From IMG/VR virus record IMGVR_UViG_2703718801_000025: 36,841 nucleotides of DNA. One strand, 5' to 3'. The DNA is from a virus. Taxonomy: Duplodnaviria; Heunggongvirae; Uroviricota; Caudoviricetes. The number at the start of each line of letters is the position of its first letter. Position 1 is the stretch's first letter. Of the stretch, positions 10,003 through 11,600 are shown in pieces. Under the pieces are notes generated by a model. The model was given only the letters and a program-made list of their open reading frames with translations, had not been told where the DNA came from and searched no databases. A program made the position numbers and the translations under genes.

Positions 10003-10078
10003 AGTGGCGAACCTCCTGATTGGATTAGGCTTCGCCCTATATTGAAGTGATTGTGCCTGACAAACAGCTAAGCGCAGT

Positions 10079-10096
10079 TGTACCGTTATTCACACA
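10079..10096. promoter_or_regulatory. candidate Ogr-dependent late promoter element (TGT-N12-ACA) for the FI operon
   Basis: TGTaccgttattcacACA centred about 85 bp upstream of the FI ATG; near-identical to the element upstream of O (TGTaccgacaaccacACA). Confidence 0.45.
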
Positions 10097-10387
10097 AAAT
10101 AACGGTATTTGTCCGCTTGCAGGGATAATCAACATAATGCTGCTCCCGATGAACTTGTTACAACCTGCATTGTTAAAAAATTGTGACAAACCACATCAAT
10201 ATCTATATATTAACCAGAAGCCAATATTATTTGTCTATGTTTGAATATAATCCAAACTCACTTTCGGTCAGACACTCCCTTACCGATTGGTTCGAGTGCA
10301 TTCCTATATTCGATATGAATTTTTGATGGCATATTTATAAAGCGGCGATATAATTCACTTCCCCTATCAAATGAAGATTCAAAGCAT

Positions 10388-11515
10388 ATGCACATGACTA
10401 GAAAAGGATGGCTTCCTGAGCTTGAAGGTCTAAGAGGACTTGCCTCTGTATGGGTATTTATTGGCCATATAGCGATTTTAACAGAATGCAGAATACCTAT
10501 TCTTGGTGAACCAACTTATGGCGTTGATTTGTTCATTCTCTTATCAGGTTTCTTGATGACTAAAAACTATATTGAACGACAAGATATTGAACCATGGATT
10601 AAATTTAGTACAATGAGAAATTTTTGGATTAGGCGATTCTTCCGTATTGCTCCTCTATATTATATTTTATTAGCTATAGCTATCTATTTCGGCCCATATA
10701 TTGGAAATATGAGAGAAATCATTGCCGACTTCTATCCTCAAACGGCAACAGATGTAAATAGATTTTCTGACCAGTCAGTCAAAAACATAATGCTACATCT
10801 TTCCTTCATTTTTGGCGTGATTCCTGACTATAGTTTCAGAACTACCCTGCCTGACTGGAGCATAGGATTGGAAACTCAATATTATTTAATATTCCCATTT
10901 ATTATGATTGCCGCGGAAAAATTCGGAATGCGGCTTTCATTATTAATTACTTCTATACTATCCACTTTTATGTTTTTTATTTTCCCCGATTTTTTCAAAT
11001 CGTTTCACATGCCTTCATTTATTTTAATTAAGCTTCCTATTTTTATTGCCGGAATGCTCGTTTATATGTCTATTTTTAAACATAACAAATCATATCTAGC
11101 ACTCGCTATCTTTGTAATTATAATTGCATCAACAAGTCATATTCATATAAATACAAAACAATTGGTAATACAAATAATATTATGCGCTTTTATATTTTAT
11201 ATTGTCAATGGCGACGACGTATCAAAACAAAATGAATTAAAAAAACAAATCAAAAGAACATTAAATAATAAATTTAGCGTATGGCTTGGTGATGTTTCAT
11301 ACTCTGTGTACTTAATTCACTTACTGATTGTAACACCTGTTTGCGCCTTCCTGTTAAATCATTCCGAGATCCACCATGAACCAGCATTTTTAAGGTTATT
11401 CATAACATCTATAATATGTTTTCCCATAGTTTACTCTCTTTCATATATAAGTTACTTATCTATTGAAAAACCATGCATAAAGATTGGAAAAAAAATAATC
11501 AACACATTTAACTAA
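10388..11515 (+). CDS. acyltransferase family 3 integral membrane protein (O-antigen/LPS acetylase-like) cargo gene
   Basis: 375-aa polytopic membrane ORF with an N-terminal L-R-G...FIGH motif typical of acyltransferase-3 enzymes; strongly AT-rich; opposite strand to flanking tail genes, in the slot P2 uses for Z/fun. Confidence 0.75.
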   Translation: MHMTRKGWLPELEGLRGLASVWVFIGHIAILTECRIPILGEPTYGVDLFILLSGFLMTKNYIERQDIEPWIKFSTMRNFWIRRFFRIAPLYYILLAIAIYFGPYIGNMREIIADFYPQTATDVNRFSDQSVKNIMLHLSFIFGVIPDYSFRTTLPDWSIGLETQYYLIFPFIMIAAEKFGMRLSLLITSILSTFMFFIFPDFFKSFHMPSFILIKLPIFIAGMLVYMSIFKHNKSYLALAIFVIIIASTSHIHINTKQLVIQIILCAFIFYIVNGDDVSKQNELKKQIKRTLNNKFSVWLGDVSYSVYLIHLLIVTPVCAFLLNHSEIHHEPAFLRLFITSIICFPIVYSLSYISYLSIEKPCIKIGKKIINTFN

Positions 11516-11571
11516 ATCTCTACAAGTTACAAAAAAGAACAATCAAACATCATTAAGAAAGACTAATTTTT

Positions 11572-11600
11572 ATGATTCCCCGGTTTCACCGGGGGATCAT
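11572..11600. repeat. near-perfect 13-bp inverted repeat (hairpin) between the convergent acyltransferase and G genes
   Basis: atgattccccggt-ttc-accgggggatcat; no U-run on the correct side for a canonical terminator on either strand. Confidence 0.5.

Follow-up and report, generated by a model that had tools for sequence, protein, structure and literature searches.

Acyltransferase-3 (AT3) enzymes are carried by the phages Sf6 (Oac), PhiV10 and BTP1 (OafB), in which acetylation of the O-antigen blocks the phage's own tailspike (PMC9558356). In AT3 carbohydrate acetyltransferases an R/K-X10-H motif in the first transmembrane helix (TMH1), an FFXISG region and an RXXR motif are conserved or essential; the histidine of R/K-X10-H is invariant and essential in OafA, and RXXR is essential in Oac, OafA and OafB (PMC7448272). 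The moron regions of P2-like phages number three (PMC6823313). Here we describe an AT3 gene in a P2-like (Peduoviridae) Escherichia coli prophage contained in IMG/VR virus record IMGVR_UViG_2703718801_000025, a stretch of 36,841 nucleotides (nt) hereafter referred to as the window. By position the gene is a moron of the P2 Z/fun slot, lying between G and FI, outside the phage core and at a site variable among P2-like phages. The gene is genuine, intact and rare; as an accessory gene it belongs to a familiar kind and occupies a known moron slot, and current understanding is left unchallenged by it. We consider it reasonably probable that it is a lysogenic-conversion gene whose product, an AT3-only O-acyltransferase of the inner membrane, acylates a surface polysaccharide made by the Wzx/Wzy pathway and serves in receptor masking or conversion.

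An intact AT3-only acyltransferase

The gene occupies positions 10388..11515 on the + strand and encodes 375 amino acids (aa) from the first ATG; the RefSeq start is the second ATG, 10394, which gives 373 aa. An earlier reading of the same DNA, made from its letters alone (hereafter the original prediction), had called the product a 375-aa acyltransferase-3 membrane protein and proposed a profile search for Acyl_transf_3. That search was positive. Pfam family PF01757 (Acyl_transf_3) matched at 82.4 bits, far beyond its cut-off of 31 (E 4e-23), over protein residues 11-351 and profile positions 3-324 of 326, and PHROG 3333 'O-acetyltransferase' matched with E 4e-51. The single Pfam domain fills the 375 aa and is not accompanied by an SGNH domain, an AT3-only arrangement like that of Oac. 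An AlphaFold2 model with helices throughout (predicted local distance difference test score 91.8, predicted template modelling score 0.90) confidently predicts an all-helical polytopic membrane fold, in agreement with the original call. No experimental AT3 structure was matched when the model was compared with the Protein Data Bank (PDB) using Foldseek (best E 0.16). A phmmer search of PDB sequences returned a lone botulinum-toxin match (E 0.04), which was judged spurious, and a BFVD search returned one significant viral match.

All three motifs of the family are present. The R/K-X10-H motif is formed by R16 and H27, with 10 residues between them, and both are invariant in alignments of 20 and of 83 homologues. 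The FFXISG-type motif of TMH2 takes the variant form LFILLSG (V46-D-L-F49-I-L-L-S53-G54), with F49, S53 and G54 invariant among the 83 homologues. In the same alignment R82, R83 and R86 are invariant, and R83-F-F-R86 constitutes the RXXR motif. Comparison with a 70% identical homologue gave dN of 0.205 with saturated synonymous sites, and hence dN/dS of about 0.06; by this measure the acyltransferase is under strong purifying selection. The open reading frame (ORF) is intact in 8/8 genomes that carry it. In one of them, E. coli Z1323CEC0015 (locus L089, 12386-13564), the stop codon is lost and 17 residues are added, so that this allele has 392 aa from the first ATG (390 aa as annotated).

Neighbours of homologues and the likely acceptor

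An identical protein is annotated in E. coli as 'acyltransferase family protein', and its cluster comprises 222 member sequences on 490 contigs. The 70% identical homologue (P0002, Raoultella) lies in a prophage remnant. Two kinds of neighbourhood are seen at 56-63% identity. In phage-like surroundings, homologue P0005 (59%) directly follows a siphovirus-type tail-fibre gene and precedes umuDC-like genes, P0007 (58%) follows a glycosidase-like ORF and a tail-fibre protein assigned to the PHROG of the one at P0005, and P0008 (56%) follows a BNR_4 protein. In Klebsiella-type polysaccharide loci, P0006 (60%, Klebsiella michiganensis/grimontii, 21 contigs) has ugd, Wzx flippase, pyruvyl-transferase and GT2 genes as neighbours, and P0003 (63%) adjoins a Wzx flippase gene. 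As far as gene neighbours can tell, this pattern supports decoration of a Wzx/Wzy repeat-unit polysaccharide that doubles as a phage receptor.

Made in the lysogen, as we infer, the enzyme would act in the manner of characterised AT3 enzymes. An acyl group, probably acetyl from acyl-CoA, would be taken up on the cytoplasmic side and passed through a transmembrane pore of the enzyme, and a hydroxyl of the Wzx/Wzy-made polysaccharide (O-antigen, capsule or similar) would be esterified at the periplasmic face. The likely benefit is an altered cell surface, which would hide the receptor both from this phage and from others that bind glycans, and would also make the lysogen antigenically different. 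The original prediction had proposed O-acetylation of lipopolysaccharide (LPS) or O-antigen, with a changed lysogen surface as the outcome. Modification of a surface glycan is indeed what the neighbour genes best support; O-antigen or LPS as acceptor and acetyl as the acyl group stay putative, and the identical prophage is found in both O182 and O156 strains.

A number of observations weigh against acylation of a Wzx/Wzy polysaccharide. No characterised member was found in the acyltransferase subfamily, though it is widespread in Proteobacteria. A tblastn search with the acyltransferase against 50,697 phage records (E <= 1e-3) matched 30 records, the nearest of which, BcepMu gp53, is 28% identical, and no kinship to characterised serotype-converting enzymes of the Oac type was seen among these matches. 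On viral contigs, the more distant homologues frequently have neighbours other than tail fibres. No PADLOC-DB family matched the acyltransferase at E <= 1e-3. Promoter-like sites in the region are not above chance, with 14 found against 11.4 +/- 3.6 in shuffles. Since the eight carriers described below are one lineage, the co-occurrence in them of the enzyme with a particular tail-fibre tip is due to shared descent and is not independent evidence; P2's own fibre tip and G likewise have low GC. The identical prophage is present in both 13E0725 (O182:H25) and 13E0780 (O156:H25), from which it follows that the acyltransferase is not tied to one O-antigen. Finally, a chromosomal clade of 45-50% identical proteins is encoded by a stand-alone gene between dacD and sbcB, outside polysaccharide loci.

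The last two observations are those on which an alternative acceptor can be based, namely a conserved envelope glycan: LPS core, enterobacterial common antigen, osmoregulated periplasmic glucans or peptidoglycan. The dacD-sbcB position is held in about 17-19 fetched Enterobacterales loci (L009-L044; for example L009, 237-4310) from Pantoea, Erwinia, Cedecea, Serratia and other genera, where dacD encodes a D-Ala-D-Ala carboxypeptidase of the PBP6b type and sbcB encodes exonuclease I. A clade fixed at one locus across genera that differ in their O-antigens would be more easily reconciled with a conserved acceptor, and the presence of an identical gene and prophage in O156 and O182 strains points the same way. 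The LPS core is, moreover, the receptor of P2, with its P2-type fibres. AT3 enzymes with conserved acceptors are known, among them WecH (enterobacterial common antigen) and OpgC (osmoregulated periplasmic glucans) (PMC9558356). Set against this, the closest homologues (56-63%) lie beside Wzx and glycosyltransferase genes or beside fibres with glycosidase-like domains, which points to repeat-unit polysaccharides. The dacD neighbourhood was also looked at as a hint of peptidoglycan as substrate; it is a matter of synteny that is not kept outside Enterobacterales, and we retained it as weak support for a conserved glycan in general. Members at 35-42% identity occur in alpha- and beta-proteobacteria, where the gene keeps no constant partner. 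On balance a conserved acceptor appears possible but rather unlikely. Acylation of cellulose, suggested by the name 'BcsY' in a Pantoea ananatis annotation, was rejected because the gene is not in a bcs operon.

Strains 13E0725 (O182:H25) and 13E0780 (O156:H25) belong to one ST300 clone with a recent exchange of the O-antigen cluster (PMC5427212, PMC5359238).

Viral homologues were also sought in IMG/VR. A scan with the single acyltransferase protein gave no match, and a scan with the alignment recovered 57 loci, none of them above 51% identity and many of them situated at the end of a contig. Ten sampled neighbourhoods were heterogeneous, with portal genes, esterase-domain proteins and host-like genes, and were not used as support. 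On two of the contigs (L113, 7379-9037; L130, 3829-5634) the neighbour of the homologue is a large protein that contains a SASA or GDSL carbohydrate-esterase domain; a possible reading is that deacetylating tail spikes are here combined with an acetyltransferase.

Position of the gene in the Z/fun slot

Gene order in the window is as in P2, ogr-D-U-T-E-FII-FI, cargo, G-H-I-J-W-V ... Q, cargo, A ... C, cargo, int. The genes flanking the acyltransferase are all on the - strand: tail sheath FI (8830..10002), tail-fibre assembly gene G (11696..12115) and tail fibre H (12117..13538). In the P2 record (NC_001895) the interval from G to FI is occupied by fun(Z), which likewise runs against its neighbours and is low in GC; a terminator is annotated between G and fun(Z). 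The positional match is thus exact, and the assignment to the Z/fun slot made in the original prediction stands, as do the opposite orientation and the AT-richness that it had pointed out. The GC fraction is 0.316 in the acyltransferase gene, 0.343 in the spacer 10143-10387 and 0.278 in the spacer 11516-11695, compared with 0.570 in FI and 0.52-0.59 in windows across the tail region.

The limits of the variable DNA were established by comparison with other P2-like phages. Within 10003-11695 only the 140 nt at 10003..10142 (- strand) are matched by them in megablast searches, at 94-98% identity; this flank, which occurs in 835 E. coli records (827 of them besides the carriers described below) and 19 phage records, is P2-like backbone upstream of FI, the region of the late promoter pF, and lies outside the cargo. 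The lineage-specific DNA runs from 10143 to ~12464 and comprises the acyltransferase and G genes, a hairpin between them and the final ~116 codons of H. The interval 10003-11600 proposed earlier for the inserted segment therefore contains cargo, but its first 140 nt are conserved backbone and the variable DNA continues well into H.

The backbone flank contains a TGT-N12-ACA sequence at 10079-10096, 77-94 nt upstream of the FI start, and the P2 record annotates a pF activator site 69-97 nt upstream of FI. Such dyads are present also at 16009-16026, before the V operon, and at 21917-21934, between the divergent O and P genes, and all three sit where P2 late promoters have Ogr-binding sites. The window as a whole shows no excess of TGT-N12-ACA sequences (11 against a chance value of 9.8), so that their placement alone is suggestive.

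Homology with the sister phage EC3 ends at 10142/10143, where an AT-rich leader of 245 nt (10143..10387, + strand) begins. Two sigma-70-like matches are found in it, at 10183-10211 and 10326-10354, each agreeing at 10/12 positions, and a putative promoter of the acyltransferase may lie here. Rfam detected no RNA family near the acyltransferase gene, and no direct repeats beyond chance flank the cargo.

A hairpin with 13-nt arms and a 3-nt loop is located at 11572..11600, between the convergent acyltransferase and G genes, on neither strand in particular. It had been described as a 13-bp inverted repeat; the structure is real, but its arms (11572-11584 and 11588-11600) match at 12/13 positions, the remaining one being a G-U pair in the + strand RNA. 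The predicted folding energy is -21.4 kcal/mol (z -4.3), and 0/200 shuffled sequences fold as well. There is no U-tract after the hairpin on either strand, and it is thus not a canonical intrinsic terminator. Its position is that of the putative V-operon terminator of P2, and from position we infer a terminator role. The possibility that the hairpin is the end of a mobile element, or a repeated element, was rejected, as the window has a single copy and the identical prophage is the only other place where it was found.

The tail-fibre end of the lineage-specific block

The immediate right neighbour of the acyltransferase is G and not the fibre gene H. The G gene (11696..12115, - strand; GC 0.371) encodes a tail-fibre assembly protein (chaperone) recognised by Pfam Caudo_TAP (E 1.5e-16). 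Matches to it at >=98% identity come only from the 8 E. coli genomes that also have the acyltransferase. The N-terminal half of the G protein is lineage-specific, and its C-terminal half alone resembles the G protein of phage Cartapus (59%). In H, the lineage-specific part is the receptor-binding tip, residues ~358-473 (12117..12464, - strand; GC 0.44), which contains Pfam Gp53-like_C at residues 384-448. Homology to other P2-like H genes ends at ~12464, and a database search with the tip gave 7 matches, all weak or partial.

At the junction of the constant and variable parts of H there is a solitary crossover site of the DNA-invertase type (12477..12502, - strand), which reads TTCTCGCATACCTTGGTTTGGGAGAA on the gene strand. 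Its 26 bp are dyad-symmetric at 20/26 positions, and homology with sister phages stops ~13 nt downstream. The window contains one such site and no invertase. The sister prophage EC3 contains two, inverted relative to each other (L002, 4265-4290 and 5799-5824), beside a recombinase gene. From the EC3 comparison and from the consensus sequences of Gin/Cin/Hin sites, we take the site to be presumably of that type. Judged by this comparison, one boundary of the acyltransferase block lies at a recombination site.

The closest backbones are those of the EC3 prophage, phage Cartapus and p13P477T-2. In these the interval between FI and H holds a DNA invertase and an invertible segment carrying a second, inverted set of tip and chaperone genes. 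Since the sister phages have the invertase module in the same interval, the acyltransferase block has replaced it. The original description of a gene inserted between the sheath and fibre genes thus holds in that accessory cargo lies there, but this cargo replaces an invertase module and has G as its right neighbour.

The arrangement invites the idea that tip, chaperone and acyltransferase form one exchangeable 'receptor cassette', whose parts would be swapped jointly by way of the invertase-type crossover site in H. One and the same surface glycan would be bound by the H tip and, in the lysogen, acylated by the enzyme, lock and key being carried together. What speaks for such a cassette is adjacency in three other phage types and in one lineage here; tblastn showed that the tips beside the siphovirus-type homologues are not homologous to the H tip of the window. 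Low GC was considered as proof of a joint arrival of acyltransferase, G and tip, and this argument is weakened by the low GC of the tip and G of P2 itself. We regard the cassette as unlikely. If it did exist, the recurrence of the subfamily immediately behind receptor-binding genes in unrelated phages would reflect a general coupling of modules for host range and self-exclusion.

Carrier prophages and their integration site

The lineage-specific block is carried by 8/5426 complete E. coli genomes and by 0 deposited phages (50,697 phage records). The 8 prophages are at least 98.4% identical to each other, have a common integration site and are one phage lineage. In the window the prophage adjoins the host genes ybjM and ybjL and the gene of the small RNA (sRNA) RybB, and the insertion site is the same in 3/3 carriers whose flanks were examined, which suggests an att site at or near rybB. 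The RybB gene itself (Rfam, 105 bits) is found at 2700-2778 on the + strand, downstream of ybjL, where it abuts the ogr end of the prophage.

The tape-measure gene T (4744..7821, - strand; 1025 codons) has an in-frame nonsense codon at 7648-7650, codon 58. The allele is 100% identical in 6 carriers including the window (the ST300-type clone) and is labelled 'internal stop' by RefSeq; T is intact in carriers Ec1120 and Z1323CEC0015. The copy in the window is probably unable to build tails, its cargo genes being nonetheless intact.

These data bear on the question of whether the acyltransferase is a passenger without current role, carried in with the exchange of tip and chaperone at the crossover site and persisting because the lineage is young. 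A single lineage with at least 98.4% identity would have had little time for decay, 6/8 prophages already have the nonsense codon in the tape-measure gene, and one acyltransferase allele is without its stop codon. Nevertheless, none of the copies has a disrupted ORF, in contrast to an essential tail gene that has decayed in 6 of the prophages, and the catalytic motifs of the enzyme are intact. Moreover, dN/dS is ~0.06 across the phage-borne clade, and comparable positions in unrelated phages again hold homologues. A passenger gene is, in our view, quite improbable.

Other cargo of the prophage

Two other cargo slots of the prophage hold anti-phage systems. In the TO region, between Q and A, a reverse transcriptase (RT) of 500 aa is encoded at 25082..26584 (- strand), within an AT-rich island at 24500-26500. 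It matches the PADLOC model RT-Toprim_I-C (retron type I-C) with E 2e-189; no retron non-coding RNA was found for it by Rfam at the gathering threshold. The third low-GC cargo site lies between the gene of a CI-like repressor (33721..34008) and the integrase gene (35789..36841). The 558-aa protein encoded there (34029..35705, + strand) has DUF4041 and T5orf172/MUG113 domains and matches the PD-Lambda-1 defence system with E 7e-120. A gene for a DinI-like protein is located in the early region at 27758..28063 (- strand), where it adjoins the replication gene A.

The retron-type RT-Toprim and PD-Lambda-1 systems are consistent with a role of the acyltransferase in competition between phages. They could also be cited for an anti-phage or other effector acting without glycan acylation, for example by membrane perturbation or abortive infection, as is often the case for cargo of P2 hotspots. 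The Z/fun and TO slots of P2 are known to hold defence genes (PMC9122126, PMC6823313). Yet the acyltransferase has no PADLOC match, the two papers on P2 hotspots that were searched are silent on acyltransferases, and enzymatic acyl transfer is what one would expect of a full AT3 protein whose catalytic residues are conserved. We therefore hold such an effector to be highly improbable and retain acylation of a surface polysaccharide as the preferred explanation.

If active, the enzyme would give Shiga-toxin-producing E. coli from cattle (O156:H25 and O182:H25, ST300), together with a few other strains, a different surface chemistry, and this would have consequences for serotyping, for susceptibility to phages and possibly for recognition by the immune system. 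Surface-glycan modification would then join the known functions of the Z/fun hotspot of P2-like phages; recent studies of P2-like hotspots have centred on intracellular defence systems. Acyltransferases are not mentioned in the two large P2-hotspot studies searched, and an acyltransferase as content of this slot may be undescribed, though it is unsurprising. The annotation of hundreds of homologues is at stake in the assignment of this subfamily.

Comparison with described systems

The Oac (OacA) enzyme of Sf6 and the enzyme of the E. coli O157 phage PhiV10 are, like the protein described here, phage-borne, AT3-only, of similar size and without an SGNH domain, and both are products of lysogenic-conversion genes. 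They differ from it in several respects. No pairwise similarity to them was seen among the 30 tblastn matches, in which Sf6, SfII and PhiV10 do not appear (their presence in the collection is unverified). The oac gene of Sf6 adjoins the integrase gene, whereas the window gene lies between tail genes. Finally, Sf6 and PhiV10 are podoviruses with a tailspike, and the carrier described here is a P2-like myovirus with fibres. The best phage match, gp53 of the Burkholderia Mu-like phage BcepMu, is a putative O-acetyltransferase that aligns over its full length (E 4e-38); at only 28% identity, from a different host and a different type of phage, it is itself uncharacterised.

The AT3 proteins encoded between dacD and sbcB are closer, with 45-50% identity over the full length, the same motifs and the same size, but their genes occupy a fixed chromosomal locus and are not phage-borne. 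With the invertible tail-fibre modules (Gin/Cin/Min type) of the sister phages (Cartapus, EC3 and p13P477T-2) the locus shares the interval from FI to the constant part of H and the crossover sequence at the H junction. The sister modules consist of an invertase and a second tip and chaperone set, in contrast to the one fixed tip and chaperone, orphan site and acyltransferase of the window.

In its setting the gene resembles P2 fun(Z): both occupy the G-FI slot, run against the genes on either side, have low GC and are convergent with G across a hairpin or terminator. Fun(Z) and the morons of the Z/fun slot are non-essential cargo, like the window gene (PMC6823313). The products are different: homology of Fun(Z) to the acyltransferase was not detected by BLASTP (best E 2.1), and Fun(Z) is a protein of 528 aa that blocks growth of T5, whereas the window gene encodes a polytopic membrane enzyme.

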